A DNA stretch of 64,000 nt, taken from the NCBI GenBank assembly GCA_001189155.1, contig LFCP01000001.1, positions 23,160 to 87,159 of the forward strand, written 5' to 3'. The DNA comes from Parcubacteria bacterium C7867-006 (GTDB lineage Bacteria > Patescibacteriota > Minisyncoccia > Phycocordibacterales > DATDWN01). Shown here piece after piece: positions 9,467 to 63,076 of this stretch (positions are counted from its first letter, which is position 1; every line of letters begins with the position of its first letter). The position numbers and the translations under genes were made by a program. A model generated the notes under the pieces. That model ran no database searches and had not been told where the DNA came from. It worked only from the letters and a program-made list of their open reading frames with translations.

Positions 9467-9596
9467 TGATGAAAGAATATCATAAATACCTTTATTTTGC
9501 AAGCTGTTTTGCATAGCTATAAACAGCCTGTTTTCTCTCTTAAAACACTTGACATTTATCTTATTTATGATATTATTGTAGGTAAGGGAGGTCGTC

Positions 9597-9785
9597 ATGG
9601 CTAGCTTCTCAGTTTCTCTCATCGGGTCCACTAACCATATCATCGTTCACTCGTTTGTGGACGGAGACCGGATTGTGGAAATCCCAACTCGCCGCTCCAA
9701 GGAAGACTTTCTCGCTCACATCCGTTGGCTCGAACGCCACGGGCGCCGTGAAGAAGCAAGGGTGCTCCGAGAGAAGTACTCTTAA
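9597..9785 (+). CDS. Small protein (62 aa) of unknown function in GC-rich mini-cassette A
   Basis: About 55% GC versus a 33% host. GGGAGG SD 7 nt upstream of ATG. Upstream TTGACA-16-TATTAT promoter. Followed by a GC-rich terminator. Confidence 0.55.
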   Translation: MASFSVSLIGSTNHIIVHSFVDGDRIVEIPTRRSKEDFLAHIRWLERHGRREEARVLREKYS

Positions 9786-9797
9786 CTCACAACTTTT

Positions 9798-9835
9798 GGC
9801 CGTCAGTTCGTAAGAGCTGACGGCCTCTTCATTTA
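9798..9835 (+). terminator. Intrinsic terminator of cassette A
   Basis: ggccgtcag-ttcgtaagag-ctgacggcc hairpin followed by tcttcatttat. Confidence 0.7.
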
Positions 9836-9924
9836 TATTGATATCGTACCAGAAGAGTACTTCTACTAGACTAAGTATAGTATGTCGCACAATATTTTGA
9901 TTTAATGATACAATTAGACTAAAT

Positions 9925-10881
9925 ATGGCTTCTTTAAAGCAGTTAAAACAACAATTTCTTGAATATATAGAGATAGAAAGAGGACGTTCGGTGAAAACTG
10001 TTGAAAATTACGACCACTACCTTAGTCGTTTTTTTGAATTTATAAAAACAGACAAGCCAGAGGAGATAAAAGATGAGGTTGTGCGACAATTCAGACTTTG
10101 GCTCAACCGCCAACCAACAGGAAATACCAAAGTTCCAAATGAAACTCTCTCTAGAAAAACTCAAAACTACTATCTTATTGCAGTTAGAGCTTTTCTTAAA
10201 TATCTAGCAAGGCAGGAAATCAAATCACTTCCAGCCGAAAGGATAGAGTTAGCAAAAGTCGGAGAACGTTCACTCGATCTTATTACCGAAACAGAGCTTA
10301 ACCGTCTCCTCAATTCTCCAAAAGGTACTGATTTAAAAGATTTAAGAGATAAAGCCATTCTAGAGCTTCTTTTTTCTACCGGTTTACGAGTTTCAGAGCT
10401 ATGTTCCCTTACATCAGATATTGATTTAAGCTCTGACGAAATAAGTATCCGAGGAAAAGGAGGAAAAGTTAGAGTGGTATTTATTTCAGACGAAGCAAAA
10501 AGGCATTTAAGAGCATATCTTTCTGCTAGAAAAGATATGAATGAAGCTTTGTTTGTTCAAGTTGGTGTTGAAATAAAGAAAAAATCAATCCAGAGCAAAA
10601 ACGGAGTTAAGAAAAATGGAGAAAAAGAAATCGGAGCCTTAACTAAGCGTTCTATAGAGAGAATTGTAAAACAACACGCCACAAAAGCTGGTATTTCTAA
10701 AAAAGTTACCCCGCATACCATAAGACACCTTTTTGCTACAGGGCTTCTTTCAAATGGTGCAGATATTCGGTCAGTTCAAGCAATGCTTGGACATTCGAGT
10801 ATTGTCACAACACAGATATATACTCATGTTACTGATAAACATTTAAAAGATATTCACAAGAAGTTTCATAAAAAGAACTAA
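9925..10881 (+). CDS. xerC: Tyrosine recombinase XerC/XerD family
   Basis: SAM-like N-terminal domain. C-terminal catalytic motifs HTIRHLFAT...LGHSSIVTTQIYTHV. Carries an internal Lys-rich insertion. Confidence 0.85.
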   Translation: MASLKQLKQQFLEYIEIERGRSVKTVENYDHYLSRFFEFIKTDKPEEIKDEVVRQFRLWLNRQPTGNTKVPNETLSRKTQNYYLIAVRAFLKYLARQEIKSLPAERIELAKVGERSLDLITETELNRLLNSPKGTDLKDLRDKAILELLFSTGLRVSELCSLTSDIDLSSDEISIRGKGGKVRVVFISDEAKRHLRAYLSARKDMNEALFVQVGVEIKKKSIQSKNGVKKNGEKEIGALTKRSIERIVKQHATKAGISKKVTPHTIRHLFATGLLSNGADIRSVQAMLGHSSIVTTQIYTHVTDKHLKDIHKKFHKKN

Positions 10882-10898
10882 GTTGATACAATAACTTT

Positions 10899-11696
10899 AT
10901 GAAAATTATCTCTTGGAATGTTAATGGAATAAGAGCAGTTCATAAAAAAGACCTATTTGTGCCTTTTGTTGAAAAATACAAGCCGGATTTGCTTTGTTTG
11001 CAGGAAACTAAGGCACAGGAATATCAAAGTGAAGTAGATTTGCCAGAATATGAGGAATATTGGAACTCTGCAGAAAGAAAAGGTTATAGTGGTACAGCTA
11101 TATTTACCAAAGAAAAACCCCTCTCTATATTACTAGGTTTGCCAGAGAAGATTACTAAAAAATATGATTGGAATGAAAACGGATATGGTGATCCAAATAC
11201 AGAGGGTCGTGTTACTACTTTGGAATACAATGATTTCTACATAGTGACTGTCTATACTCCGAACGCAAAAGATGACCTCTCTCGCCTATCTCTTCGTCAC
11301 AAACAATGGGACCCAGCTTTTCTGGCTTATGTTAAAGAGTTAGATAAAAAGAAACCAGTTATATTTTGTGGAGATTTAAATGTTGCTCACACAGAAGATG
11401 ATCTTGCTAGACCAAAAGATAATATTGGTAAAAAAGGTTTTACAAATGAAGAACGCGAAGGAATACAGAAAATGATAGATGAAAATTTTGTAGATACTTT
11501 TAGAATTTTTACAAAAGGAAACGGGTATTACACATGGTGGAGTCATTTTGCAAACGCTCGAGAAAGAAATATTGGTTGGAGAATTGATTATATTTTTGTT
11601 AGTAAAAGACTAGAAGGAAAAGTCAAAAAAGCGTTGATACATAAGGATGTTTTTGGTTCTGACCACTGCCCTGTTGAGTTAGATATTTCTATATAA
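10899..11696 (+). CDS. xth: Exodeoxyribonuclease III (AP endonuclease)
   Basis: IISWNVNGIR, LCLQETK and GDLNVAH...SDHCPV motifs. Confidence 0.9.
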   Translation: MKIISWNVNGIRAVHKKDLFVPFVEKYKPDLLCLQETKAQEYQSEVDLPEYEEYWNSAERKGYSGTAIFTKEKPLSILLGLPEKITKKYDWNENGYGDPNTEGRVTTLEYNDFYIVTVYTPNAKDDLSRLSLRHKQWDPAFLAYVKELDKKKPVIFCGDLNVAHTEDDLARPKDNIGKKGFTNEEREGIQKMIDENFVDTFRIFTKGNGYYTWWSHFANARERNIGWRIDYIFVSKRLEGKVKKALIHKDVFGSDHCPVELDISI

Positions 11697-12053
11697 GACT
11701 TAAAATAATTTAAGGTTATCCACACATTTGTCTCACATTGTCCTTTACTTGTCTTTTAAAAAAACATAAAATGAATTTCAGAACGAGATTATAAATTCGA
11801 TAAACCCCGGATGGACATTCTCAATTGTTCTTTCATATTGTGCTTGAGAGGTGCGCACCTCTCCCCTTGGAAGACACTTTCTGGTTAAGGTGGTGTTGTT
11901 CGATCAACTCATCCCCAACCTTATCTATATTTTTTAGCTTGTGATGCTGTTATCCGCATCATTCTTTGCTGGAGTGATCTTTCTCTCTTCAACCGCCCAA
12001 TGACGAGTGCCTGTGTAAAGATAACACACGGACCCCCTTTATTGGGCGGTTTT

Positions 12054-13520
12054 TTATTTAACGTGATGACTAGAACGGATTTTTTTGATTTCCTCTTCGT
12101 CAGCTTCTTCTTTAGACATTTTACCTTTTTCTCCAAGTGCCTCAAGTTCCTTAATCGGTAAATTAACTAGTATTTTAGCCTTATTTTCCAAATATTCAGC
12201 TGTATTTTTTTTTGGATCTTCTAAAACTTCCTCTAGTAACGCATGCAAAATATAACCAATTTTGGGTCCTGGAGTAATTTCTGTAACTTCCATTATTTTT
12301 TTACCATCAATCTTTAACATTCCAACAGAAATTGGGTCACGAAGAGCCTCTTCTATCATCGCATGATATTTTCGGAGACGGTAGGGGTCTTCTTTGGGTC
12401 TACCAGTCCCTATACGGTCGCATATGCGTAGATTCATCAAATCCCATATATTCTCTCGTCCAACATTTACAATCATTCTACGGACCGCTGAGAGCGTTAT
12501 TTGCTCTGTGTCAGAAAAGAACATATGCCAACGGACCATATTGGTAACTTTTTCAATAATTTTTGTTGGATATTTGAGATTCGTAAGGATTTTTTTTGTA
12601 GTTCTTGCTCCAAGTACTTCATGACCATAAAAAGTCCAAGTATCTTGTTCTTTCCCCCATCTTCTAGATTCCGGTTTAGAAATATCGTGGAATAGAGCCG
12701 CCAAACGGAGATCTAGGGGGTATTTTTTATCAGCAGCTCCCTGCAAAGAACGTAGTAAATGTTCCCAAACATGATATGAGTGTGCCCTGTTTTGCTCTAC
12801 TCCCACAGTTTTTTCTAATTCAGGAACAATGTAAGGTAATAAACCTAGTTTTTTTATGGCCAATAAACCATCCATTGGTCTATCGGACATAATTATTTTT
12901 GTGAATTCATCTCTTACTCTCTCCATTGAGATGTTTTTCAAGAGCTCTGCATTTTCAAATATAGCTTTTTCAGTGTTAGCTTCTATTTCAAAGCCTAATT
13001 CAGCTGAAAATCTAACTGCACGCAGTATTCGAAGACCATCTTCCTTAAAACGACTAACAGAATCCCCTACAGTTCTGATTATTTTATTTTCTATGTCATT
13101 TTGTCCCCCAAATAGGTCAATTATCTCTTTTTTTGATGTAGAGTAAGCCAAAGAGTTCATTGTGAAGTCCCTTCTTTTTAGATCATCTTCTATTTTTTGG
13201 CTAAAAATAACGGTATCAGGGTGTCTATTGTCGGAATATTCCCCTTCTATTCTGTATGGAGTAACTTCAATAACAGTAAGGGTTGGATCAGTTGTTTCCT
13301 CGTTTACAACCCCGACTGTTCCAAAGGTATTTTCGTAAAAAGTCTTTGGAAATAAAGCGATAATCTCATCTGGTTTTGCATTTGTTGTAATATCCCAATC
13401 CTTTGGAGTTTTATTTAACAAAAGATCTCTTACGCATCCACCTACGACAAAAGCCTCAAAACCATCTTTTTCAAGTTGCTCTGTTACATATGAAACTTCT
13501 GTTGGAATTGAGAATGTCAT
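12054..13520 (-). CDS. cca: CCA-adding tRNA nucleotidyltransferase with an HD domain
   Basis: GGCVRDLLL...DWD polymerase-beta motif plus an HD motif (HD..K); 488 aa. Confidence 0.85.
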   Translation of the reverse strand: MTFSIPTEVSYVTEQLEKDGFEAFVVGGCVRDLLLNKTPKDWDITTNAKPDEIIALFPKTFYENTFGTVGVVNEETTDPTLTVIEVTPYRIEGEYSDNRHPDTVIFSQKIEDDLKRRDFTMNSLAYSTSKKEIIDLFGGQNDIENKIIRTVGDSVSRFKEDGLRILRAVRFSAELGFEIEANTEKAIFENAELLKNISMERVRDEFTKIIMSDRPMDGLLAIKKLGLLPYIVPELEKTVGVEQNRAHSYHVWEHLLRSLQGAADKKYPLDLRLAALFHDISKPESRRWGKEQDTWTFYGHEVLGARTTKKILTNLKYPTKIIEKVTNMVRWHMFFSDTEQITLSAVRRMIVNVGRENIWDLMNLRICDRIGTGRPKEDPYRLRKYHAMIEEALRDPISVGMLKIDGKKIMEVTEITPGPKIGYILHALLEEVLEDPKKNTAEYLENKAKILVNLPIKELEALGEKGKMSKEEADEEEIKKIRSSHHVK

Positions 13521-13572
13521 TTAAGTTTAATTATAGACCACTTTGTAGATTTATAGTATAGTAGTTTACTAA

Positions 13573-13644
13573 TGCACCCGTAGCTCAACGGATAGAGTAC
13601 CGGTCTTCGGAACCGTGGATGTGGGTTCGATTCCTGCCGGGTGC
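13573..13644 (+). tRNA. tRNA-Arg (anticodon TCG); no encoded CCA
   Basis: Manual fold: acceptor GCACCCG/CGGGUGC, GGUUCGAUUCC T-arm, anticodon loop CUUCGGA. Confidence 0.8.
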
Positions 13645-13797
13645 ACAATTTGTTTTTATAGTGCGGGATACACGACTCGGAAACCCAAGGTTTTCCGACG
13701 CTCGTTTCACTCGCTGCCTTCCTCCACGGAAAACTACCGTTTTCCGACCCTTTCCCACCGCTACCCACACAAAACATTCGCTATGCTCATTTATTTG

Positions 13798-13868
13798 TGC
13801 GGGTAGCGGTAATCGAAACCGCGTCTCGTCCTTGGCAAGGACGTGTTCTACCACTAAACCATACCCGC
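13798..13868 (-). tRNA. tRNA-Gly (anticodon GCC)
   Basis: Minus-strand GCGGGUA acceptor, anticodon loop UUGCCAA, T-loop UUCGAUU. Confidence 0.8.
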
Positions 13869-14173
13869 AATATTTGAACTTTATCATCATATACTAAAGC
13901 TTTTAAAATTAAAAGAGGTGGACTTATCCCCTAGTTTTTGTGGAAAACTGTGGATAAGTCTGGGGACATGTGTATTAAAGACAGGTCTTTGACTAGTGTC
14001 AATTTTTGAGACATTTCTCTGTCTCTATCCGAGATATGGCTCTAAATAAGGTTATTTTTACAGACATATGTCTCTATTCTGTCTGTTTTTTAGAAATATA
14101 GATAAATGTTTCACGTGAAATATATAAATAAGGTTACATGTGTAACAACCAGGGTTAGAGTTATAATATAGCA

Positions 14174-14632
14174 ATGTATAACAAAAACTTCTTCAAAGAA
14201 CCAACAGAAAAACAAAAAATTGGCCAGATAGGGGAAGATTCTGCTTGTAAATGGCTAGAAAAGGAGGGTTACAGGGTTATTGAGAGGAACTATCTAAAGA
14301 AGTGGGGAGAGATAGATATTGTTGCCACAAAGGGAAATAAGATCCATTTTATTGAGGTCAAAAGTGTTTCTAGAAACTTATCTGATGTTACACATGTAAC
14401 CTCAGTAGCAGAGCAGAGCTCGCTAATGGGCAGGCAATCAGAGGGGGATTATAGGGCAGAGGATAATATGCATCCATGGAAACTAAAAAGGTTGGGCAGG
14501 GCAGTTCAATCATATTTTCTGGATAGAAATGTTTCAGATGAAACAGATTGGCAGTTTGATATTGTAACTGTTCATATAGATATGTCTAAAAGACTAAGTC
14601 GTGTCTTTTTTATTCCAGATATTGTTTTATAG
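14174..14632 (+). CDS. yraN: YraN/UPF0102 family endonuclease-like protein
   Basis: GEDSACKWLEKEGYRVIERNY...EIDIVA...IHFIEVK and a C-terminal WQFDIVTV; carries an extra internal ~35-aa insert. Confidence 0.7.
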   Translation: MYNKNFFKEPTEKQKIGQIGEDSACKWLEKEGYRVIERNYLKKWGEIDIVATKGNKIHFIEVKSVSRNLSDVTHVTSVAEQSSLMGRQSEGDYRAEDNMHPWKLKRLGRAVQSYFLDRNVSDETDWQFDIVTVHIDMSKRLSRVFFIPDIVL

Positions 14633-14691
14633 GCTTTTTATTTGTTATTTGAATTTTTTGTGATAGACTCTATTCTGTATTTGTCGGTATT

Positions 14692-14733
14692 CGGAGTGTA
14701 GTGTAACGGCTAACATTCCTTTTTGGGGAAGTG
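14692..14733 (+). repeat. Degenerate copy of the tRNA-Pro 5' half (acceptor through anticodon stem), 59 nt upstream of the intact gene
   Basis: 29/29 nt identical to 14751..14779 (cggagtgtagtgtaacggctaacattcct), then diverging. Confidence 0.7.
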
Positions 14734-14750
14734 ATCTTTGAAAATTGCGT

Positions 14751-14823
14751 CGGAGTGTAGTGTAACGGCTAACATTCCTGTTTTGGGAACAGGCGACTCC
14801 GGGTTCGAATCCCGGCACTCCGA
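14751..14823 (+). tRNA. tRNA-Pro (anticodon TGG)
   Basis: Acceptor CGGAGUG/CACUCCG, anticodon loop UUUGGGA, T-arm CCGGGUUCGAAUCCCGG, discriminator A. Confidence 0.8.
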
Positions 14824-14876
14824 CGGAATTTTTAAAATCAATTCCAGAAACATGTTATGTTTCTGTGGTCCGCAGG

Positions 14877-14911
14877 AAGGCGACTCCGGGTTCGAATCCC
14901 GGCACTCCGAC
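14877..14911 (+). repeat. Direct repeat of the tRNA-Pro 3' end (variable loop, T-arm and acceptor 3' strand), 55 nt downstream of the gene
   Basis: ggcgactccgggttcgaatcccggcactccgac is identical to 14790..14822. Confidence 0.75.
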
Positions 14912-14919
14912 AATTTAAA

Positions 14920-15225
14920 ATGGTTTTTATTCGTAAAACTGAAGATTTTACTTGCGAGCATTGCGGATTTTTTGTAGAAGGCAATGGTTACACTAATCAC
15001 TGTCCTCAATGCCTGTATTCAAAACATGTTGATATAAACCCTGGAGATAGGTTGGCTACTTGTGGGGGATTGATGAAACCTATTGGAATAGAAAAGAAAG
15101 GTAAAGAATATATAATTAAACACAAATGTGTTAAATGTGGTTTTGAAAAACCAAATAAGGCAGTAAAGGAGGATAGTTTTGATATGATAGTTCAGATTTC
15201 TGCCAGCAGTCTTTCGAAGATTTAG
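14920..15225 (+). CDS. RNHCP-domain zinc-ribbon protein
   Basis: CEHCGF...NGYTNHCPQCLYSKHVD...GDRLATCGGLM...CVKCG matches the RNHCP domain pattern. The start is taken at Met 14920, inside the longer listed ORF. Confidence 0.65.
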   Translation: MVFIRKTEDFTCEHCGFFVEGNGYTNHCPQCLYSKHVDINPGDRLATCGGLMKPIGIEKKGKEYIIKHKCVKCGFEKPNKAVKEDSFDMIVQISASSLSKI

Positions 15226-15418
15226 TTTTCCAGAGACTGCGGAAGTAATTAGCAATTAACGACGAAGATAAAGTAAGCCCGAAGCATTGTTTGAGCACTA
15301 GTAATCTAGGCGAGTTTGCGAGAGGGCTACGTATCGAGAAGATTAATTGCTTGATTGCTGAGCGAGAGGAAAATTCTAGCAAGAATTTATCCGTGCTCTG
15401 GAAAACTAAATCGGAGTA

Positions 15419-16546
15419 TTATTTATTTAACTCGTCGGTTATTAGTTTTGTTAGTTCTGGTGCTGTGGTGCTTGCAAACATTTTTGCAAAATCTCCTGGA
15501 TCCTGAGATAGGAATTGAGCAAAATTAATTTTCAGCTCTCTTTGTAGGTCTCTGTTTATGTATGCGAGAGTTATAGCATTTAAACCTCTTTGGCTTGTTG
15601 TATCTCCGTCTGAACTAGTAGATATAACACCTATGAGTGTAGCTTTTTTATCAACTACGAGTCCTCCAGATGAGCCCTTTTGAGAAACAATTGTGCCTCC
15701 GACCGAAATAATATCAATAGTTCCATCTTTGAAAGTATAAACATCTTGAATATTTGTTATTGAGCTTGTTATATTCAGATTTTGCAGTATTGATAATCCA
15801 CCTAAAAATCCAGCAGGGTAGGAGACAAGTATTACTGGTTCATTTATCTCTATATTTTCACGAACATTCATAGTTATAAACGGTAACTGCTCTGGAAGGT
15901 TTGAGTTGTCTATCATTTTTGTTATTCGCAAGAAAGCAAAATCATCTTCGCCCGTACCTTTTGGATTTTGTTCTTTTAGTTCTGTTTTGTTATTTGCTAC
16001 CCAAGTAGGGGATATGTAAACCAGTTCCAAGTTGTATGTTGGGTATGCGGGGCTTCCTGTTCTAGCAACACATTGAATAAAATCTTTTTCTCTATAATCT
16101 TTTAGTAATAAATATTGTGCTACGTGTGCGTTGGTTAATATAAGACCGTTCGGTTCAACTATGGCTCCGGTCCCAGATATTGGGTTTAACTCTCCACCTT
16201 TCGTTGTACACAAAATATTCACTGTAGCTTTTCTAGCAAAAGTGTTTATTGCTTCAAAATCTGGTGTAGGTTCAGGAGCTTTTGGGATTTGGGGTTGGAC
16301 AACTACTTCCGGTGTTGTTTTTTGAACCTCTGCCGGCTTTTTTACTGTAGTTTTTTTAGTCTCTGTTGTAGTGGGTTTGGTGTCTTTTATTGTTTTTATT
16401 ATTGAAGATGTTGCTATCGCAATTGTGTTTGTTGTGGTTGCTTGGATAGAAATAGGTTCTTCTGGAGCAACATACACTTTAGTGTTTGTTCCTCCCAGAA
16501 ACATTAAGTGGGCCAATATGAAAGATATGACTGTTTTAATAAACAT
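15419..16546 (-). CDS. Secreted trypsin-like (S1 family) serine protease with a Thr-rich linker
   Basis: N-terminal signal/TM segment. LILTNAHV (His region) and GSSGGLVV (Ser region). Confidence 0.65.
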   Translation of the reverse strand: MFIKTVISFILAHLMFLGGTNTKVYVAPEEPISIQATTTNTIAIATSSIIKTIKDTKPTTTETKKTTVKKPAEVQKTTPEVVVQPQIPKAPEPTPDFEAINTFARKATVNILCTTKGGELNPISGTGAIVEPNGLILTNAHVAQYLLLKDYREKDFIQCVARTGSPAYPTYNLELVYISPTWVANNKTELKEQNPKGTGEDDFAFLRITKMIDNSNLPEQLPFITMNVRENIEINEPVILVSYPAGFLGGLSILQNLNITSSITNIQDVYTFKDGTIDIISVGGTIVSQKGSSGGLVVDKKATLIGVISTSSDGDTTSQRGLNAITLAYINRDLQRELKINFAQFLSQDPGDFAKMFASTTAPELTKLITDELNK

Positions 16547-16632
16547 TGGTTAATTATAGCACTTTAGTTATAGTACTCATTTGATAGAGGATTTATTTTC
16601 TGGTATGATGGCCTAGTTGAGATAGTGAATAT

Positions 16633-16703
16633 GCGGGATTAGTTTATCGGTAAAACGACAGTTTTCCAAACTGTAGTGAGCGGTTCGACTCCGCTATCCC
16701 GCA
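16633..16703 (+). tRNA. tRNA-Gly (anticodon TCC)
   Basis: Acceptor GCGGGAU/AUCCCGC, anticodon loop UUUCCAA, T-arm AGCGGUUCGACUCCGCU. Confidence 0.8.
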
Positions 16704-16749
16704 CAGACGAAAGGCCCCTCGAAAGAGGCGGCCTTTCGCTTTTAGCGGG

Positions 16750-16960
16750 ATAGCGGAGAGAGGGGTCGGGAGAGGATACTCTCCCGTGGAGGAAGGTGAG
16801 GTTGGGATGGGACCCAACCGCAAGACCTTTTTCAGGTATTTTATGAGCAGAGCGAAATAAAATACCGAAAAGGTGTACTGCTCCTGTAAGGAGGGGAGTA
16901 TTTAAAACCGCCGGTTTCCCAGCCCGCGTATTCCCGCACTTTACAATTATTTTTGTAATG
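16750..16960 (+). other. GC-rich structured non-coding element bracketed by tRNA-Gly-like 5' and 3' end sequences
   Basis: Starts GCGGGAUAGCGG (compare tRNA 5' GCGGGAUUAG) and ends UAUUCCCGCAC (compare tRNA 3' UAUCCCGCACA). Internal hairpins GGGAGAG-GAUA-CUCUCCC, GGUUGGG..CCCAACC and GGUAUUUUAU..AUAAAAUACC. Preceded by a 13-bp terminator hairpin at 16706-16745. Confidence 0.3.
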
Positions 16961-16973
16961 ATAAAGTTCGTTT

Positions 16974-17594
16974 ATGTTAACAGCAACAAGTACAGAATTT
17001 ATACTCCTTTCTCGTCAGGTAGATTATTTGAATAATTCATTTAATTGGGTTGTGGGTGGAATTGGTGTAGTAATTACAATTGTAATTGGAGTTATTGGTC
17101 TGACCCAGTTTTTTTACAATAGAAAATTGATTTCACAAGAATCAGAGGTAATAAAGAAAGATCTTGCTGATGTTGTAAATAAGATAGTGGACGATAAGGC
17201 GCTAAGTTTGCAATCATTTATCGAGGAAAGCATTGCAGATGTAAGGATGGAGTTGGAACTTCAAAAGAAATCAATGGGAGGTGATATTGCAAGAAGTTAC
17301 GCTCTTTCGTGTGAAAAAGATGATCTTCATGCCACTGCATTTAATTGGTGGCTTTCTGCTGCAGAAAATTATGATTCTAGAAATAATGGTTTGTTGCCAA
17401 TGACTATTAAATCAGCAAAAGATTGTCTGGAAAAGATAGTAGCCGGTGATAGTTTTAATATAAAAATATTGTGGGATAAAATGACAGATAATCAGGAAAA
17501 AATAGCTAGACTAAAAATAAAGCACCCCACAGAGGCAAAATTACTTGAAGATTTAATGATGGCGAAAGCTAGTCTTTCAGAAACAAAACTTTAA
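16974..17594 (+). CDS. Hypothetical membrane-anchored protein
   Basis: 206-aa ORF with one N-terminal TM segment (VVGGIGVVITIVIGVIGLTQFF). Confidence 0.5.
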   Translation: MLTATSTEFILLSRQVDYLNNSFNWVVGGIGVVITIVIGVIGLTQFFYNRKLISQESEVIKKDLADVVNKIVDDKALSLQSFIEESIADVRMELELQKKSMGGDIARSYALSCEKDDLHATAFNWWLSAAENYDSRNNGLLPMTIKSAKDCLEKIVAGDSFNIKILWDKMTDNQEKIARLKIKHPTEAKLLEDLMMAKASLSETKL

Positions 17595-17607
17595 TATTTA
17601 ACCAATC

Positions 17608-17637
17608 AAAAAAGAGCTCAATTGAGCTCTTTTTTGA
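17608..17637. terminator. Bidirectional intrinsic terminator between the 16974 ORF and hup
   Basis: aaaaaagagctcaattgagctctttttt: an 8-bp perfect palindrome flanked by A6 and T6. Confidence 0.75.
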
Positions 17638-17656
17638 TTTCTCTCGAGAGAAATGT

Positions 17657-17929
17657 CTATTTTACGGCCTCCTTCAAAGCCTTAGCAGCTCTGAATTTCG
17701 GAACCTTCATTGAAGGAACTGAGATAGTCTCTCCAGTTCTAGGGTTTCGAGCCTGTCTTGCAGCTCGAGTCTTTGTTGAGAAGATACCTAGACCAGCTAT
17801 TGATACCTCACCACCTTTTTTAAGTGTTGAGACAATTGAGTCGATCATTGTATCTACAACCTCCTCCGCCTGAACTTTCGTACCACCTAGTTTCGCATGT
17901 ACTGCGTCAACAATTGCTTGTTTATTCAT
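17657..17929 (-). CDS. hup: DNA-binding protein HU
   Basis: MNKQAIVDAV...GFGIFSTKTRAARQARNPRTGETI; 90 aa. Confidence 0.9.
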   Translation of the reverse strand: MNKQAIVDAVHAKLGGTKVQAEEVVDTMIDSIVSTLKKGGEVSIAGLGIFSTKTRAARQARNPRTGETISVPSMKVPKFRAAKALKEAVK

Positions 17930-18028
17930 GATGATAAAAATTAACTACACTTATAAATCCATACCTTATCTATAAAGGTATTATATATTAAGGCTTTTTT
18001 AACGCAACATCTAGACAAATGTCAATTT

Positions 18029-19561
18029 TTATCGTGCAAATTCTATGTTTCTAGACTCTCTGATTAGTGTAACTTTTATTTCACCAGGATATTTTAGTTC
18101 TGATTCAATACGAAGTGCAATATCACGCGCCATTTTCTTTGCTTCTAGGTCTGTAACTTCAGTTGGTGTAACAAAAATTCTTATTTCACGACCAGCTTGT
18201 AATGCATAAGATTTTTCTACACCTTTAAATGAAGAGGCAACAGCTTCTAGGTCTTTCAATCTCTTCAAATAATTTTCAATACTATCTCTTCTTGCACCAG
18301 GTCGTCCTCCAGATATTGCATCAGCAGATTGAACGATCATTGATTCCAATGTTTCGTAAGGATACTCGTTGTGATGCGCTTCCATTGCTTTGATAATATT
18401 TTCATCAGTTCCAAATTTTTGTAGAATTCTTCTTCCGATTTCAACGTGAGTACCAACAACTTCATGATCAAGAGCTTTTCCGATATCGTGAACTAGTGCT
18501 CCCGCTTTTGCAACCTGAACATTTGCACCGATTTCTTCTGCAATCATTCCTGCGATGTGCGCCATCTCAACAGAGTGTGCTAGAACATTTTGTCCGTAAC
18601 TTGTTCTGAAGTGCAGTCTTCCTAGTATAGAAACAACTCTCGGATCCAAACCAAGCACTCCGGTTTCGTAAACAGCTTCTTCACCTTTTTCTTTTATTGT
18701 TTTTGCAATTTCTGCCTCAGCTTTTTGAACCATCTCTTCAATTTTTGCTGGTTGTATTCTTCCGTCAGCAACCAGTTTCTCGAGAGCGTTTTTAGCTATT
18801 TGTCTTCTGACTGGATCAAAAGAAGAGATTGTGATTGAACCGGGAGTATCATCCACGATAACTTCAACTCCTGTTGCTCTCTCAAAAGCCTTTATATTTC
18901 GACCTTCTTTTCCGATTATTTTTCCTTTTAGCTCATCGTTAGGAATAGCAACTTGGGTAGTTAGCATATCCGAAGAAACAGAGTTGGCCAAACGCTGTAT
19001 TGATGTGGCCAGAATTTCTTTTGCTTTTTCTTCAAGTTTTTCTTGGCCAGATTGTTCTAGTTTTCTCATCTTAACCAAAATGTCTTCTTCTGATTCTCTC
19101 TCAACTTTTTTTATAATTTCTTCCCTAGCTTCTTCTTGTGAAAGTTTTGCAATTTTTTCTAACTCTTCTTTTTTCTGAGACTCAAGTAGTTCCGCATTTT
19201 GTCTGATATTTTTTATTTCTTCAATTCTTTTTTTTACTTCTTCTACTTCTTTATCTATTTCTGTTTGTCTATGATCAAGAAGCTCATCTTTTTTGATAAG
19301 TCTTTCCTCATTTTTTTTGTTATCTTCTTCTTTCTGCTTTATTTCTACTCGGGCTACTTTCAGTATTTCTTCAGCTTTGTTTTCCGCCTCTTCAATTATT
19401 TTCTGTTCTCGGTCTTTGGCTTCCAACATCATTTGTTTGATGTCGAGTTCCATTGATCCTCGTCTTCCTCTTGAAACCAAAATTCTCAAACCGTAACCAA
19501 GCGCCAATGAAACCAGTGACGCTGTGCTCAACATGAGCGCAATTATTTTTAATGAAAACAT
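18029..19561 (-). CDS. rny: Ribonuclease Y
   Basis: N-terminal TM segment, coiled coil, KH domain (GKIIGKEGRNIKAFERATG) and HD domain (HSVEMAHIAGMIAEE...VHDIGKA). Confidence 0.9.
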   Translation of the reverse strand: MFSLKIIALMLSTASLVSLALGYGLRILVSRGRRGSMELDIKQMMLEAKDREQKIIEEAENKAEEILKVARVEIKQKEEDNKKNEERLIKKDELLDHRQTEIDKEVEEVKKRIEEIKNIRQNAELLESQKKEELEKIAKLSQEEAREEIIKKVERESEEDILVKMRKLEQSGQEKLEEKAKEILATSIQRLANSVSSDMLTTQVAIPNDELKGKIIGKEGRNIKAFERATGVEVIVDDTPGSITISSFDPVRRQIAKNALEKLVADGRIQPAKIEEMVQKAEAEIAKTIKEKGEEAVYETGVLGLDPRVVSILGRLHFRTSYGQNVLAHSVEMAHIAGMIAEEIGANVQVAKAGALVHDIGKALDHEVVGTHVEIGRRILQKFGTDENIIKAMEAHHNEYPYETLESMIVQSADAISGGRPGARRDSIENYLKRLKDLEAVASSFKGVEKSYALQAGREIRIFVTPTEVTDLEAKKMARDIALRIESELKYPGEIKVTLIRESRNIEFAR

Positions 19562-19773
19562 ATTTTATGCTGGCAGTTTCTCGTCTCTCGTTTTAGGAAT
19601 TTCTAGTGTTATTTAAGTAAATTCTATAAGTCTTTAAGATTTTGTATGTGTTGGGGTTTCAGTCAGTCGGGATATAAACAGGAAAGTCATCAGGAAAAAC
19701 AAAAAACAACCGTTTATTATTTAATCAATAATAAACTCACTATATAAGAAACGTCGTCATAAGTCAAAAATGG

Positions 19774-19903
19774 ATAAAACTCGTAAATCTGGCAAATTTC
19801 TGTGTTGCTAGGATTATTTGCTCCACGCGCAGTACTATAATGTACAGCTTGGTCACAAATAATCCGTCGCGCCTTGAACTTTACTCAGATTTACGAGTTT
19901 TAT
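19774..19903 (-). repeat. Structured repeat element, copy 1: nested long hairpin (18-bp outer and 10-bp inner inverted repeats) homologous to 41722..41834
   Basis: Outer ataaaactcgtaaatctg / cagatttacgagttttat; inner ggattatttg / caaataatcc; conserved core GUUCAAGGCGCGACG...UAGUACUGCGC.UGGAG...CUAGCAAC. Confidence 0.6.
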
Positions 19904-60416: not shown

Positions 60417-60437
60417 TATTGATTTAATAAAAAAGCC

Positions 60438-60878
60438 ATGCAAAATCATAATTTAAAAAGAAAAACAAAAAATAAGAAGCACCGACAGATGGGGCGAGGA
60501 GGAACTCGTGGTAAAACTTCTGGACGAGGTACAAAAGGACAGAATGCTAGAGCGGGTCACAAAAAGCGACCAGAAATCCGAGATTTCATCAAAAGAATTC
60601 CAAAGATGAGAGGACGAGGAAAAAATCTTAACACAGGTATTCAATCTAAATACTCAGTAGTTAATATTGGTCTTTTGAATAAACTATGTAAAAACGGTGA
60701 TACCATATCTCCAGAGACATTGGTAAAACACAATGTTCTATCTATGAACAAGGGTTCTCTTCCAAAGGTAAAAATTTTGGCAAAAGGAGAGCTAGATAAA
60801 AAACTATCTTTTGAAGGTTGTTTAGTTTCAGCTACTGCAAGAGTAGCTATTGAGAAAGCAGGTGGTAGTGTAAAATAA
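60438..60878 (+). CDS. rplO: 50S ribosomal protein L15
   Basis: Canonical L15 sequence. Confidence 0.9.
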   Translation: MQNHNLKRKTKNKKHRQMGRGGTRGKTSGRGTKGQNARAGHKKRPEIRDFIKRIPKMRGRGKNLNTGIQSKYSVVNIGLLNKLCKNGDTISPETLVKHNVLSMNKGSLPKVKILAKGELDKKLSFEGCLVSATARVAIEKAGGSVK

Positions 60879-60882
60879 TAAT

Positions 60883-62154
60883 ATGAAAGACTTCTTCAAT
60901 AAATTTTCTCTCGTCTTTGCTGATAAAATCCTAAGACGACGAATATTTTTCACACTTTTTGCTCTAGTAATATTTAGAGTTCTTGCTTCTATTCCAGTTC
61001 CAGGAGTTGATCATGGTAGACTAGCTCAGTTTTTCTCAAGCAACGAATTTTTCGGTCTACTTAATATTTTCTCTGGAGGAGGACTTTCACAACTTTCTAT
61101 TGTTATGCTAGGAGTTGGTCCTTATATTACTGGTTCAATCATAATGCAGCTTTTGACTATCATGTCTCCTAGATTAAAGGAGATGTATCAGGAAGAAGGG
61201 GAAGCAGGAAGAATGAAGTTTGCTCAATACTCAAGACTTATAACTGTGCCTTTAGCAGTGCTTCAGTCATTTAGCTTTATAAAACTTTTAGAAAGTCAGG
61301 GTGTAATAGCTCATTTGTCACCATTGGCTTTAATTACAAATATTTTAGTAATAACAGCAGGTTCAGTTCTACTTATGTGGATTGGAGAACTTATTTCTGA
61401 GTTTGGAATTGGTAATGGTATGAGTCTCATTATCTTCTCTGGTATTGTTGCTTCTCTACCAACAGAGATAAGTCAGTTAGCATTTGCTTTTGATGTATCA
61501 CAGATACCTGTTTATCTAGCTTTTGCGGCAGTCGCAGCTATTGTTATTGTTGCTGTAGTTGTTATTACAGAAGCCGAAAGACCAATACCGGTAACATATG
61601 CAAAGCAGGTTAGAGGAAATAGAGTTTATGGTGGAACTTCAACATATCTACCACTAAGAATAAATCAAGCTGGAGTTATTCCAATTATTTTTGCTTTGTC
61701 TATTCTTCTTTTCCCTCAGATGATTTTGAGATTTTTGCAGAATTCAAGTCACGCTATTGTAAAAACAGTTTCATCTGCAGTTTTGGGAGTTTTGGCTAAC
61801 AGCTGGTTCTATGCAATAGCATATTTCCTACTAGTATTTATATTCACATATTTCTATACAGCAGTTACTTTTGATCCAGATCAGATTGCAAACAACCTTC
61901 AGAAAAACGGAGCATTTATTCCAGGAGTTAGACCAGGAAAATCTACTTCAGAGCATATCGCTAGAATACTAACTAGACTTACTCTTGTCGGTGCGCTATT
62001 CCTAGGTTTCATCGCAGTTCTTCCGTTAATCATGAGAGGTGTTACAGGTATCACAGCTGTTTCAGTTGGAGGTACAGCTCTTCTTATCGTAGTTTCTGTA
62101 GTTATTGATTTGATTAAGCGAGTTGATGCTCAGGCTTCAATCCGAGAATATTAA
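60883..62154 (+). CDS. secY: Preprotein translocase subunit SecY
   Basis: 10-TM SecY; 423 aa. Terminator hairpin aaaaaacagtgtt...gacactgtttttt at 62196-62245. Confidence 0.95.
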   Translation: MKDFFNKFSLVFADKILRRRIFFTLFALVIFRVLASIPVPGVDHGRLAQFFSSNEFFGLLNIFSGGGLSQLSIVMLGVGPYITGSIIMQLLTIMSPRLKEMYQEEGEAGRMKFAQYSRLITVPLAVLQSFSFIKLLESQGVIAHLSPLALITNILVITAGSVLLMWIGELISEFGIGNGMSLIIFSGIVASLPTEISQLAFAFDVSQIPVYLAFAAVAAIVIVAVVVITEAERPIPVTYAKQVRGNRVYGGTSTYLPLRINQAGVIPIIFALSILLFPQMILRFLQNSSHAIVKTVSSAVLGVLANSWFYAIAYFLLVFIFTYFYTAVTFDPDQIANNLQKNGAFIPGVRPGKSTSEHIARILTRLTLVGALFLGFIAVLPLIMRGVTGITAVSVGGTALLIVVSVVIDLIKRVDAQASIREY

Positions 62155-62288
62155 TTAGTTTTTTGTTCTGTTTCGTTACATTGAATTTGTAGAAAAGAAA
62201 AAACAGTGTTGGAATATTAAATATTTTGACACTGTTTTTTCTTTTCTATAGACTGGCATAAGAGTTGTTAAAGAGAGGAGGCGATAAG

Positions 62289-62993
62289 GTGGCAGATTGG
62301 AAAAAGAGCAAACCTAGAAGAGACTGGAATGCTCCTCCGAAGAAGTACGCAGGCCTACCACCCCCTCCAAAAGAGGCTGTGGCTAGGTATGTCGAGATGC
62401 TCGACAAAATCCCCAGACCAGGAAGGGTCATTGATTGGGGGCTTAGGGAAGGTGACCAGTTGCTCGTGAGCTGGCTTCCTCCATACGTAGCTGATGGTTC
62501 TCCACAAGGTGATATAAGAGGGTGTCAGATCGCAGTTCTGCGAGACGGCAAGTATCTTCTTTGGAGCGCTCGGCTCCTAATGAAGGACCCAACTGAAACT
62601 TACCTTTGTGCTCCATACCTAACATCCAAGAAGGATGTCGGCCACTTTGTTGATCTCATTGCGCGACTCTCCGGTTACGCTTTGCAGGTGAATGTAGAGG
62701 CTACAACATCCTTCAGGGCTGTGCTGGTGGATTCTGGTAATGAAGTTAGTCGCCGTGTGGTTCGTGGCGACGAGCTTTACTACAGCTTCGCATCCAGAAT
62801 ATTCACTGTTTCTCGCTCTCACATGACAATTGATATGAACCTTTATCATCCAACTGACTCTGGTATTATCATTGAGGCTAGGACTCCATACCTCAATGCT
62901 ATTCACCATGGTGTTGCGCTGGTGCACTTGGCCGCTGAGGTCAACGGGTTCATGCCAAAGTGTGTGGGTAACAACAAGTACGTTTGTGTGTAG
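62289..62993 (+). CDS. Protein (about 234 aa) of unknown function in GC-rich mini-cassette E, inserted between secY and adk
   Basis: About 55% GC. AGGAGG SD 7 nt before a GTG start (62289). Upstream TTGACA-17-TAGACT embedded in the secY terminator. GC hairpin terminator ggccgcgacgatgttctcgtcgcggcc at 62997-63023. Confidence 0.5.
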   Translation: MADWKKSKPRRDWNAPPKKYAGLPPPPKEAVARYVEMLDKIPRPGRVIDWGLREGDQLLVSWLPPYVADGSPQGDIRGCQIAVLRDGKYLLWSARLLMKDPTETYLCAPYLTSKKDVGHFVDLIARLSGYALQVNVEATTSFRAVLVDSGNEVSRRVVRGDELYYSFASRIFTVSRSHMTIDMNLYHPTDSGIIIEARTPYLNAIHHGVALVHLAAEVNGFMPKCVGNNKYVCV

Positions 62994-63076
62994 TTAGGCC
63001 GCGACGATGTTCTCGTCGCGGCCGGCTTGTTTACATTATATGAGCAATATTTATATATTTTGGTATAATTCTTTTT

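Follow-up and report, generated by a model that had tools for sequence, protein, structure and literature searches.

The 64,000 nucleotides of Parcubacteria bacterium C7867-006 analysed here (the window) raise the question of why an AT-rich chromosome should carry, among its housekeeping genes, short GC-rich genes led by strong Shine-Dalgarno (SD) sequences. The host chromosome belongs to Zambryskibacteria (Parcubacteria/Paceibacterota), with a tiny and strongly syntenic genome; the window is 36.5% GC overall and holds five islands at approximately 0.49-0.575 GC. The reading towards which we lean, with modest confidence, is that the islands are autonomous modules with leadered, SD-dependent mRNAs, set among host genes that are leaderless or SD-less, most of the modules having been acquired and one having become fixed.

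Five GC-rich islands and six genes

The abrupt GC-rich islands of a preliminary description of this DNA were all recovered when GC was profiled in 200-nt and 120-nt windows: A (9581-9850, GC 0.52), B (20531-20830, GC 0.52 with a peak of 0.575), C (36431-37370, GC 0.49), D (41341-41710, GC 0.52) and E (62251-63050, GC 0.49). Its count of five cassettes applies to the islands but not to the genes, of which there are six, since island C contains a convergent pair, C1 and C2; nor was its list of GC islands exhaustive. The window also has GC islands at four tRNAs and at intergenic elements, at least three or four of them, that lack an ORF and look structured.

GC at third codon positions (GC3) is 0.49-0.68 in the six island ORFs versus 0.18-0.33 in host genes, tuf and the ribosomal-protein genes included. 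Four-fold sites are near uniform in the cassettes, whereas C+G makes up 6% of them in highly expressed host genes; the composition of the cassettes is therefore distinct from that produced by host translational selection.

The sharp composition boundaries might suggest that the assembly is chimeric or contaminated by a GC-richer organism, a concern that the preliminary description had itself raised and to which we now give next to no weight. Across the A and E junctions the window is matched at 100% identity by a JGI contig (L018, L019), and across the E junction also by a Logan contig (L020, run SRR2043728); a Logan contig of 2,915 bp carries C1 and C2 together, so the islands are not chimeric. 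The arrangement of C1, C2 and E also recurs in genomes from several independent samples and MAGs. For these three genes, the other assemblies and the shared slots refute a chimeric origin.

A shared set of expression signals

All six island ORFs have SD complementarity of 5-7 nt placed 5-8 nt before an ATG, GTG or TTG start, versus none of 59 host genes (Fisher p = 1.2e-8), which bears out the earlier claim that strong SDs mark the cassettes and are essentially missing from host genes. Approximately half of Parcubacteria have been reported to lack the anti-SD motif in 16S rRNA (PMC9297842), a point against the SD-dependent reading. In 24 of the 59 host genes a -10 box is located 4-12 nt upstream of the ATG, which points to leaderless host mRNAs; the modules have leaders of 20-45 nt with a strong SD.

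Promoters of the sigma-70 type were sought by scanning both strands of the window for TTGACA-N16-18-TATAAT, with a maximum score of 12. Five matches score 11/12, A and C1 among them, and sixteen score 10/12, D and E among them. The proposal of a near-consensus promoter at each cassette thus holds for A, C1, D and E but not for B and C2, for which there are weak candidates only. The proposal of a GC-rich terminator at each cassette is borne out, a hairpin being present at all six genes. In the terminator scan, the C1 terminator was the sole cassette terminator detected and the strongest in its 10 kb (34-44 kb); clear GC hairpins at A, B, C2, D and E were recognised by reading the sequence, that of D having been missed by the scan because of its 12-nt loop. 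A T-rich run follows the hairpins of A, B, D and E, but the tail of C2 is just a weak 'cttt'. Taken together, these observations support the view that the island genes form a class distinct in composition and translation signals, with a moron-like promoter-SD-ORF-terminator build.

Cassettes A, B and D

Cassette A (+ strand) has the promoter TTGACA, a 16-nt spacer and TATTAT at 9549-9576 (11/12), followed at 9584-9785 by an SD (AAGGGAGG, 9584-9591; 6-nt match) and a 62-aa ORF (ATG 9597, stop 9785; GC 0.53, GC3 0.60) that encodes a basic protein (pI 9.7, R9/K2), and at 9798-9834 by the terminator ggccgtcag...ctgacggcc with a T-rich tail, which forms a 12-bp stem in the minimum-free-energy fold. 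Cassette B lies on the minus strand, with SD and ORF at 20605-20801 (SD GGAGGAGGAG 20792-20801; 61 aa, ATG 20790, stop 20605; GC 0.58, GC3 0.68), a CPWC...H...H...C motif in the protein, and the terminator gagggcccgg...ccgggctc plus TTTTTT at 20544-20579, with a 14-bp stem in the fold. Cassette D (+ strand) has, at 41310-41353, TTGACA, a 17-nt spacer and TATTTT, TG preceding the second hexamer, and the SD GAGGAGG (41347-41353); its GTG-initiated 94-aa ORF (41359-41643; GC 0.54, GC3 0.66) precedes the terminator acgaccgg...ccggtcgt and a T-run at 41667-41705, as seen in sequence and fold. Searches for family, structure and viral matches to A and B found none, and homologues of D were absent from every locus retrieved and from viral contigs.

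As homologues of these three genes were not found, their coding status is read solely from the geometry of SD, ORF and terminator, and one may ask whether A, B and D are GC-rich structured small RNAs in which frames happen to be open. Antisense or alternative frames of 60-105 codons are open in the same islands, whole-transcript folding gives z of -3.3 to -4.4, and the genome contains GC-rich intergenic elements that have promoters and terminators but no ORF. We nonetheless regard this explanation as improbable: in each of the three a 6-nt SD precedes the start codon at the canonical distance, the ORF ends 12-23 nt (A, D) or approximately 25 nt (B) before the terminator, Rfam gave no match even at E <= 1, and for the sister modules C1, C2 and E coding has been demonstrated. 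Furthermore, the CDS-only z of A and B is approximately -0.7 to -0.9, so their excess stability comes mostly from the terminator.

Variable slots in related genomes

Across ten related genomes synteny is conserved and slot content is variable. In genomes with ClpP at least 90% identical, the A and B slots hold no gene, the gaps being 54 and 62-110 nt: this applies to the A slot in L031-L033 and to the B slot in L031 (rsmE-clpP gap of 54 nt). The D slot, between MBL and L28, is empty in L006 and L008, and genomes whose RecJ is 90-97% identical differ in whether they have C1 and C2. C1 is missing from L013, and there the stop codon of recJ directly adjoins the C2 terminator, which indicates that the promoter moves with the gene. 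Conversely, a slot that the window leaves empty holds, in close relatives, a lipoprotein-like gene of another kind, again GC-rich and SD-led, and unrelated GC-rich, SD-led genes occur in L006 (80 aa), L008 (185 aa), L010 (63 aa), L013 (106 aa), L017 (255 aa) and L009 (197, 113, 86 and 78 aa). From these patterns we infer that A, B, D, C1 and C2, together with the unrelated modules of the relatives, are accessory, as had been suggested; the accompanying idea of one dispersed gene family fails, the six proteins being unrelated to one another.

The convergent pair C1 and C2

On the + strand, C1 is preceded at 36396-36455 by the promoter TTGACA, a 16-nt spacer and CATAAT (11/12), a 5' UTR hairpin (36435-36446) and the SD AAAGGAGG (36448-36455). 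Its TTG-initiated ORF (36461-36826) encodes an acidic protein of 121 aa (pI 4.2, 29 D+E) for which no family match was found, and ends before an intrinsic terminator at 36858-36889, GGTCGGCACTTCGGTGCCGACC followed by a T-run, the top call in 34-44 kb. An orthologue in the same slot of L014 (64% identity, GC3 0.57) has the promoter and the hairpin as well, with differing stems (CCCAATATTGGG against CCCCGTACCGGGG). Between the two, dN is 0.24 and dS 2.3 (dN/dS approximately 0.1), and C1 is thus a real coding gene under purifying selection.

C2, on the minus strand, consists of the SD GGAGG (37345-37349) and a 125-aa ORF, together at 36963-37349, and a terminator hairpin (ggccccg/cgaggcc, 36912-36941) whose DNA is nearly identical in L013 and L021. 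It had been taken for a truncated C-terminal fragment of a class II ribonucleotide reductase (RNR), but the ORF is complete. Judging from its matches to Pfam PF12637 (1.1e-9, 38.9 bits; cut-off 22.8 bits) and NCBIfam PRK06556 (2.3e-39, NrdJ positions 741-862 of 960), C2 is a TSCPD/NrdJ-type domain that stands alone; proteins of this kind also occur on mobile elements. Its outside relatives P0058 and P0037 (50% and 53% identity) lie on mobile-element-like contigs of 56-57% GC.

Orthologues of C2 occupy the recJ-rnhA slot of L007, L009, L013 and L021. The C2 series runs through GC3 values of 0.70, 0.55, 0.54, 0.36 and 0.32, and allele identities are incongruent with those of the flanking genes. 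When changes were polarised, the AT-rich orthologues showed 17 GC-to-AT versus 5 AT-to-GC; in the GC-rich ones the counts are 7 versus 12 and thus not AT-directed. This amelioration-like series fits a putative foreign origin of C2 followed by decay toward host composition. The SD is retained in the AT-rich orthologues too.

Cassette E and a possible maintenance of GC-richness

The terminator hairpin of secY and the promoter of E (10/12) together occupy 62192-62254 on the + strand; the hairpin spans 62192-62246, and the -35 box TTGACA (62226-62231) lies within its 3' arm, ahead of the -10 box TAGACT (62249-62254). RNAalifold on five genomes gave 20 pairs for this hairpin, 7 of them with compensatory changes. 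SD and ORF follow at 62276-62993 (SD AGGAGG 62276-62281; GTG 62289; 234 aa), and the terminator ggccgcgacg...cgtcgcggcc with a T-rich tail at 62997-63033; analogous hairpins lie downstream of E in L001, L026, L029 and L030. The AF2 model of the protein has a pLDDT of 88, and its fold had no close match among solved (PDB) or predicted viral (BFVD) structures.

E had been grouped with the imports, but its relatives contradict a recent import. Its family is clade-wide (approximately 230 aa, 31 clusters at 50% identity), and all eight members looked up lie between secY and adk or, on short contigs, adjoin adk; no member was found outside this slot. Identities of 46, 31 and 25% parallel SecY identities of 93, 83 and 76%, and dN/dS of approximately 0.09 marks E, like C1, as a real coding gene under purifying selection. 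E partly answers to the description of a conserved gene of locally biased composition, and to that extent the import proposal is undercut. E was probably fixed early in the clade and is now a conserved clade-specific protein.

Its composition is more difficult to explain. E is GC-rich in all five AT-rich genomes read, with GC3 of 0.47-0.56 (four measured) versus 0.19-0.29 in the flanks, and synonymous sites are saturated across the genomes compared. An AAGGAGG-type SD is present in four of the five; L005 starts too near the gene to show one. Synonymous changes, polarised with saturated outgroups that push such counts toward balance, are 14 GC-to-AT versus 11 AT-to-GC, where approximately 4:1 would be expected under the estimated host bias. 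On these comparisons, persistent GC-richness and balanced changes argue against simple import and decay for E.

They also lend some substance to a reading that we consider possible although rather doubtful, namely that the genes are native and that their GC-richness is actively maintained by selection on the mRNA, be it for its structure, for resistance to RNase Y-type decay of AU-rich RNA or for dependence on SD-led initiation; in a host otherwise leaderless and SD-less, the modules would on this view be a translational class under separate control. The SD-led minority genes of Bacteroidetes, which respond to ribosome state, offer a parallel. Such maintenance would account for the composition and SD of E despite its saturated divergence and apparently vertical descent, and for the persistence of the SD in AT-rich C2 orthologues. 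The host encodes an RNase Y (18029-19561), and in CDS-only folding two E orthologues reach z of -5.3 and -7.6, and C1, C2 and D approximately -2 to -3, host controls ranging from +0.6 to -1.9. However, E of the window reaches just -1.4, A and B are as weak as noted above, and the outgroup bias affects the balanced counts. In addition, the C2 orthologues at GC3 0.32-0.36 are intact ORFs in the same slot, so high GC is not required for C2.

Origin of the modules

A phage origin, with the modules as morons recently imported from a GC-rich, SD-using background and encoding proteins for anti-defence, toxin immunity or host manipulation, was in essence the explanation first proposed. The moron-like build and the presence/absence variation agree with it, as does the occurrence of C2-type TSCPD proteins on contigs with a serine recombinase or primase-like gene; C2 can be aligned to phage genes for class II RNR with 31-46% identity, and the acidity of C1 resembles that of DNA-mimic proteins, as a resemblance only. 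The searches nevertheless make this origin unlikely. Scans of viral contigs found nothing for A, B, C1, D or E, BFVD contained no viral structure match, PADLOC gave no defence match for the cassette proteins, and PHROGs returned weak matches only (D at E 5e-4 over 28 residues; C2 at 5e-3 to a phage RNR large subunit). The cassettes sit among housekeeping genes and are flanked by no phage gene, whether integrase, capsid or other; the integrase-family gene adjoining A carries the annotation XerD, with counterparts at syntenic positions in relatives. E, moreover, is conserved and apparently vertically inherited. Anti-defence, toxin or host-manipulation roles are pure speculation.

Under the reading that we favour, of autonomous, mostly acquired modules, the mRNAs would be leadered and structured and would need SD/anti-SD pairing for translation. 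Most modules would have come from GC-richer sources. Mobile elements are one candidate; relatives of higher GC content are another, in view of a related contig of 54% GC. Against this, no donor was found for A, B, C1, D or E, nor a viral or plasmid source. Entry might have proceeded through ComEC-type competence machinery and recombination in the conserved flanks, which is a guess only, and modules could afterwards drift toward the composition of the host, as the C2 series suggests. SD-independent initiation of the Bacteroidetes type is reported to favour unstructured start regions, and an SD and GC-richness may for this reason go together.

Comparison with known systems

Horizontally transferred islands of 2.7-45 kb have been reported in Patescibacteria (PMC12455944); the present modules, by contrast, are single-gene units of 0.25-0.9 kb. 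They resemble small transferred islets, or the flexible-genome slots of streamlined bacteria, in their variable slot content and atypical composition, in C2 alleles incongruent with their flanks and in the amelioration-like gradient of one gene. Unlike such islets, they share one grammar (-35 promoter, strong SD, terminator) that host genes lack, their donors were not found, and E keeps a foreign-looking composition though apparently vertical.

Phage morons are autonomous promoter-gene-terminator units between conserved genes of lambdoid prophages. The modules are similar in being single genes of atypical composition with their own promoter and terminator, placed between conserved syntenic genes and variably present among close relatives. 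They differ in lying in a bacterial chromosome among ribosomal, secY, recJ, clpP and similar genes, in being GC-richer than their surroundings, in the clade-wide conservation of E and in that no phage genes or homologues were found.

In passing the Pfam threshold and aligning with NrdJ from approximately position 741 to 862, C2 is comparable to stand-alone TSCPD (PF12637) proteins and to split NrdJa/NrdJb, a region roughly where split NrdJ enzymes divide. NrdJb, however, has approximately 230 aa against 125 in C2, and no nrdJa-like partner is adjacent to C2, which is unlikely to be an essential RNR subunit since several close relatives lack it.

The ribosomes of Bacteroidetes ignore the SD except at a few SD-led genes, such as rpsU in Flavobacterium johnsoniae. 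The present host is similar in that its core genes lack an SD and a small minority of genes has a strong, conserved one; the modules differ from the SD-led genes of Bacteroidetes in being accessory or clade-specific and GC-rich. An SD-led minority in an otherwise SD-less host implies a separate mode of translation initiation.

Results

Gene grammar of the host chromosome

A genome-contig scan placed the nearest relatives of this chromosome among Zambryskibacteria/Paceibacterota MAGs, some of which carry a Saccharibacteria label in their record. The whole window has a GC content of 36.5%, and its gene content is housekeeping: the str, S10 and spc ribosomal-protein operons, tuf, fusA, secY and adk, together with recJ, rnhA, comEC, clpP, the RNase Y gene, rsmE and xerD. 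Third-position codon GC (GC3) was measured in 51 host genes and lay within 0.18-0.33 throughout, also in tuf and the genes for ribosomal proteins. Shine-Dalgarno (SD) complementarity of at least 5 nt was found in none of 59 host genes, and a TATAAT-like box ends 4-12 nt 5' of the ATG in 24 of these 59 (for example at 63058-63079 and in the 12054 and 40399 regions); given the missing SD and the position of this box, the core genes appear to be leaderless or SD-independent. In the limited set of literature searched, we found no description of leaderless core genes or of single-gene GC-rich SD-led modules in the Parcubacteria group, which is not proof of novelty. A type IV secretion/conjugation-like cluster with TrbL/VirB6-, PrgI-, TraC- and VirB4/TraG-like genes lies some 10 kb left of where the window begins, at 10780-20783 of the matching contig L018, and adjoins an rRNA dimethyltransferase gene.

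Anatomy of the GC-rich genes

The preliminary description had proposed five foreign GC-rich mini-cassettes, each built of promoter, SD, small ORF and terminator, and sliding-window GC recovered islands at all five sites: 9585-9835 (A), 20550-20805 (B), 36440-37365 (C), 41344-41710 (D) and 62270-63025 (E). One correction is that island C holds two convergent genes, C1 on the forward strand and C2 on the reverse strand. The six ORFs, recognized by reading and translation, encode proteins of 62 aa (A), 61 aa (B, reverse strand, with a CPWC..H..H..C motif), 121 aa (C1, pI 4.2), 125 aa (C2), 94 aa (D) and 234 aa (E, from a GTG at 62289). Their GC3 is 0.49-0.68, against 0.18-0.33 in the host, and SD complementarity of 5-7 nt at canonical spacing precedes all six, against none of the 59 host genes (Fisher p = 1.2e-8), so that the claimed contrast in SD use stands. 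For E, the NCBI and JGI calls place the start at a TTG at 62265 (242 aa, 62265-62993); the AGGAGG motif (62276-62281) argues for a start at GTG 62289 and a protein of 234 aa, as on the Logan contig that covers this locus.

Near-consensus promoters, claimed for every cassette, were found for four of the genes. Matches of 11/12 to TTGACA-N16-18-TATAAT occur only five times in the 64 kb on both strands, and two of them are the promoters of A and C1; those of D and E are among sixteen matches of 10/12 in the same search space, whereas B and C2 have weak promoter candidates only. A GC hairpin ends every unit, as had been proposed, and is followed by a T-rich run in A, B, C1, D and E and by a weak 'cttt' in C2. 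With a promoter and terminator of their own and an atypical composition, the cassettes have the features of autonomous transcription units, and their description as such holds well beyond chance.

Assembly chimerism does not account for the islands. The A and E junctions are 100% identical in a JGI contig, the E junction is 100% identical in a Logan contig from run SRR2043728, C1 and C2 occur together on a separate Logan contig of 2,915 bp, and gene-in-slot arrangements, a slot being the gap between conserved syntenic genes, recur in genomes from unrelated samples.

The other GC islands in the window are tRNAs and ORF-less, structured-looking intergenic elements without an Rfam match. The first such element lies at 8240-8483 (GC 0.51, probably reverse strand). 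An 11/12 TTGACA-17-TATTAT promoter at 8482(-) would start a transcript about 200 nt long, closed by a terminator hairpin, gatcggcacatgccggtc, and a run of Ts; the element includes gacctggaagggagaagg, a sequence with a vague likeness to SRP RNA, and may be a divergent housekeeping RNA or a novel small RNA. A structured-looking stretch at 26060-26310 (GC 0.50), between two divergently oriented genes, gave no SD-led ORF, Rfam match or ARAGORN tmRNA call and may represent a divergent RNA of the RNase P type or another structured RNA. Directly 3' of tRNA-Gly(UCC), several GC hairpins are packed into about 220 nt at 16705-16930, with neither an ORF nor an Rfam match. Finally, a long near-perfect inverted repeat at 34480-34625 (aaatgatgaggtttttgtttt ... 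aaaacaaaaacctcatcattt), with a GC-rich inner hairpin, separates the divergent gene at 34103-34471 (-) from recJ (+).

Coding status and protein identity

Comparison of orthologues gave a dN of 0.10 and a dS of 1.12 for E (contigs L001 and L005), a dN of 0.24 and a dS of 2.3 for C1 (window and L014), and, for C2 (window and L013), a proportion of nonsynonymous differences of 0.35 with synonymous sites saturated. Third-position changes thus dominate, by which E, C1 and C2 are identified at the sequence level as protein-coding genes under purifying selection. A, B and D are putative coding genes, judged from how SD, start codon, ORF and terminator are arranged; other frames are likewise open in the GC-rich cassette stretches. 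The cassettes were rejected as described structured RNA families: Rfam 15 gave no match overlapping them even at E <= 1, only four tRNAs reached the gathering score, and an E-value scan of three related contigs (L006, L008 and L011) gave a single chance-level match.

Searches with A, B, C1, D and E returned nothing convincing in Pfam, NCBIfam, PHROGs or PADLOC; A, B, C1 and D had no match among PDB sequences, and no homologue of A, B or D was found in family libraries, PDB sequences, viral contigs or related loci. C2 matches Pfam PF12637 (TSCPD) at 38.9 bits (cut-off 22.8, E = 1.1e-9, profile positions 13-86 of 88), a domain that 44 of the 48 search matches listed also carry. Against the NrdJ model PRK06556, C2 aligns at 2.3e-39 with positions 741-862 of 960 and scores 134.9 bits, compared with a cut-off of 859 bits; as it covers these positions only and is complete at 125 aa, it was rejected as a full NrdJ enzyme, the alpha chain of which has about 700-1200 aa. 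The earlier view of C2 as a truncated ribonucleotide reductase (RNR) fragment was likewise abandoned, since the ORF is complete and has its own SD and terminator. These matches identify C2 as a stand-alone TSCPD/class II RNR-type domain.

Slot turnover in related chromosomes

A ComEC scan yielded nine related chromosomal loci (L006-L014) and a distant locus labelled Gammaproteobacteria (L015), and the synteny of the cassette regions is common to ten related chromosomes. The common order is recJ-[slot]-rnhA-comEC-[slot]-...-MBL-[slot]-L28-M50-[slot]-S12-S7-[slot]-fusA, in which the content of the slots is variable. Between recJ and rnhA, the window has C1 and C2, L014 has C1 alone (64% identity), L013, L007 and L021 have C2 alone, L009 has C2 and another GC-rich gene, and L012 is empty. 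The same slot holds, at 8660-8860 of L006, a TTGACA-17-TATAAT promoter with an ORF-less transcript of about 150 nt and a terminator, without an Rfam match, and, at 6200-6300 of L011, an SD-led hydrophobic ORF of 26 codons, MLTTIILTLLWKFRVRIVEGLFCLFK, which is type I toxin-like. The stop codon of recJ directly adjoins the C2 terminator in L013, and in the window the entire C1 unit, promoter included, sits between them; the promoter belongs to the module and is gained or lost along with its gene.

Turnover extends to the other slots. The D slot (MBL-L28) is empty in L006 and L008, and the A and B slots are empty in four contigs with ClpP at least 90% identical; L031 has 54 nt between rsmE and clpP (B slot), and L031-L033 have 62-110 nt between xerD and rpsO (A slot). 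Patchy presence and empty sites therefore characterize A, B, C1, C2 and D; E, in contrast, occupied the secY-adk slot in every family member looked up. Conversely, L031 has a GC-rich SD-led gene for a lipoprotein-like protein of 125 aa, occupying a slot closed in the window, L008 and L009 have a GC-rich SD-led pair (185/197 aa) in the M50-S12 slot, and other slots of the relatives contain unrelated GC-rich SD-led genes of 80, 113, 86, 78, 63, 106 and 255 aa; Pfam gave no match for these genes, with none on record for that of L031. Since unrelated genes of this kind occupy slots across the relatives, the phenomenon is lineage-wide. The encoded proteins, compared by sequence, are unrelated to one another and have only an expression grammar in common, so the modules cannot be described as the dispersed accessory gene family that had been suggested.

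The spc operon of a further related genome (L026, 1388-1846) has an additional ORF inserted between rplE (L5) and rpsN (S14), which encodes 152 aa, begins with a predicted membrane helix at the N-terminus and found no match in Pfam. Its GC is 0.42, its GC3 is 0.39 and its SD is weak, so that an older module in partial decay may be seen here.

The E family

A profile search with E collected 31 clusters (50% identity) into one family, the majority about 190-240 aa long, with the shared motifs NGGLR.GD, GC(Q/R), SRR.I.GD, QGT.DMNLY, HH and AR.LAE.NG. All eight members looked up (protein records P0025, on four contigs, P0026, P0074, P0079, P0089 and P0100) lie in the secY-adk slot or beside adk on short contigs; all loci sampled carry E because they were found by searching with E itself. 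Identity of E to the window falls with that of SecY (46% at 93%, 31% at 83%, 25% at 76%), as expected of a gene that is inherited vertically but evolves faster. E is GC-rich in all five AT-rich genomes read; where measured, in four of them, it has a GC of 0.49-0.53 and a GC3 of 0.47-0.56, compared with 0.19-0.29 for the flanks, and an AAGGAGG-type SD precedes it in all four AT-rich genomes whose upstream sequence could be read. It also occupies the secY-adk slot on one related contig with 54% GC. The 3' arm of the secY terminator hairpin carries the -35 box of E, and this hairpin is conserved, seven compensated pairs being counted across five genomes. The predicted fold (AF2) reached a pLDDT of 88 with 23 sequences and 39 with three. 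Downstream of E, the adenylate kinases encoded by the window (63077-63667) and by contig L003 (1212-1802) are 41% identical, and SecY, two genes upstream, is 93% identical; on these identities, adk seems to be unusually fast-evolving or replaced.

Possible import, decay or maintenance of GC

High expression was considered as a source of the composition. The cassettes were rejected as highly expressed native codon-biased genes, given that tuf and the ribosomal-protein genes have a GC3 of 0.18-0.32; translational selection fails as an explanation because C and G together make up 6% of four-fold sites in highly expressed host genes, whereas these sites are near uniform in the cassettes. Composition and codon usage are thus atypical in a manner not explained by expression level.

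Import from a GC-richer, SD-using background, as initially proposed, accommodates C2 better than E. The GC3 of C2 orthologues ranges from 0.70 (L009) through 0.55 (L013), 0.54 (window) and 0.36 (L007) to 0.32 (L021). C2 alleles do not track RecJ, being 45-63% identical where RecJ is 90-95% identical, and are as close to TSCPD proteins on contigs with 56-57% GC as to one another; a serine recombinase is encoded on one of these contigs, and an AEP-type primase domain on a second. Polarized synonymous changes in the two AT-rich C2 orthologues number 17 GC-to-AT and 5 AT-to-GC. The history of C2 would therefore fit import followed by decay. Horizontal transfer and genomic islands of 2.7-45 kb have been described in Patescibacteria (PMC12455944). 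For A, B, C1 and D, viral-contig scans found no donor, and for E neither such a scan nor the protein profile search did.

E is conserved, shows the vertical pattern and stays GC-rich. Its polarized changes are 14 GC-to-AT and 11 AT-to-GC, and those of the window and L013 copies of C2 are 7 and 12, where the AT bias of the host, as estimated from host four-fold-site composition, would predict about 4:1; the numbers are small, and saturated outgroups push them toward balance. As they stand, they do not fit a simple decay of E or of the GC-rich copies of C2. This balance favors the main rival explanation, in which GC-richness itself is selected and the modules form a separate translational channel. 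Folding z-scores computed on the CDS alone, which are -5.3 and -7.6 in two E orthologues and about -2 to -3 in C1, C2 and D, hint at selected mRNA structure and point the same way; those of the window's own E, A and B are unremarkable, and the AT-rich C2 orthologues persist intact in their slot, so that this gene does not require high GC. We regard it as a serious but unlikely alternative. Its stronger form, a second expression channel in which GC-rich SD-led genes are maintained by selection and their synonymous GC is selected rather than inherited, would account for the E family still having about 50% GC3 beside neighbors near 22%, and we consider it doubtful. If it were true, local GC would take on a signalling function in mRNA structure, stability or the choice of initiation mode.

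Discussion

The sequence anatomy of the six genes, their contrast with the host genes, the turnover of their slots and the coding status of C1, C2 and E are established by the sequence comparisons. We slightly favor the explanation that the genes are autonomous, leadered, SD-dependent modules placed in the intergenic gaps of a leaderless or SD-less chromosome. A full sigma-70 promoter would drive a leadered, GC-rich and structured mRNA, which would be recruited to the ribosome through its strong SD and would end at its own terminator. SD and GC-richness might be linked in that a structured mRNA could not use the default initiation mode of the host. Modules may be acquired from GC-richer sources, possibly through uptake by competence and recombination in the flanks. 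A more extreme version of the second-channel reading, for which the type IV secretion-like cluster just left of the window may be noted, has these sigma-70/SD/terminator units built for expression in the symbiont's bacterial host; it is conceivable but not supported by the data.

A single small genome thus seems to contain two gene grammars, an AT-rich leaderless or SD-less core and a GC-rich minority with -35 promoters and SD dependence. This would make it a clean natural system for analyzing start-site choice by CPR ribosomes, a question that is open because about half of Parcubacteria are reported to have a 16S rRNA devoid of the anti-SD motif (PMC9297842). No rRNA gene was found, by motif search or otherwise, in the window, in the 10 kb beyond either end or in any related locus; that orthologues of E, C1 and C2 have kept their SD gives only indirect evidence that the ribosome reads it. 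For annotation, a GC jump with GGAGG and a terminator could flag accessory or clade-specific genes in Paceibacterota, and the same signature helps to choose correct start codons, as for E, annotated with 242 aa where the SD supports 234. Conserved and GC-rich beside neighbors with a GC3 near 0.2, E also offers a test of amelioration models and could reveal selection on synonymous GC content. Its family, which has a well-predicted fold and lies beside the spc operon across the clade, is uncharacterized as far as our searches show.

A phage-derived, moron-like origin with possible anti-defence roles had also been suggested. Its appeal lies in architecture, since phage morons, like the cassettes, have their own promoter and terminator and an atypical composition. 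The flanks are housekeeping genes, rpsO/xerD (A), clpP/rsmE (B), recJ/rnhA (C1/C2), an MBL-fold gene/rpmB (D) and secY/adk (E), and no phage genes were found in them; viral-contig scans with A, B, C1, D and E were all negative, and PADLOC-DB HMMs, a library without anti-defence proteins, gave no match to the six proteins at E <= 0.1. Because phage context, phage homologues and defence matches are all missing, we consider this origin improbable. Mobility as an integron or transposon was weakly excluded: no integrase of that type is present nearby, the only tyrosine recombinase near the cassettes is the gene annotated XerD, and reading of the sequences revealed neither repeats common to the cassettes nor flanking repeats when filled and empty slots were compared. 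Among known systems, the phage moron resides within a phage or prophage between conserved phage genes, whereas the cassettes reside between chromosomal housekeeping genes; the integron cassette is an ORF that lacks a promoter, carries an attC recombination site and adjoins an integron integrase and attI, whereas each of the cassettes has a promoter of its own.
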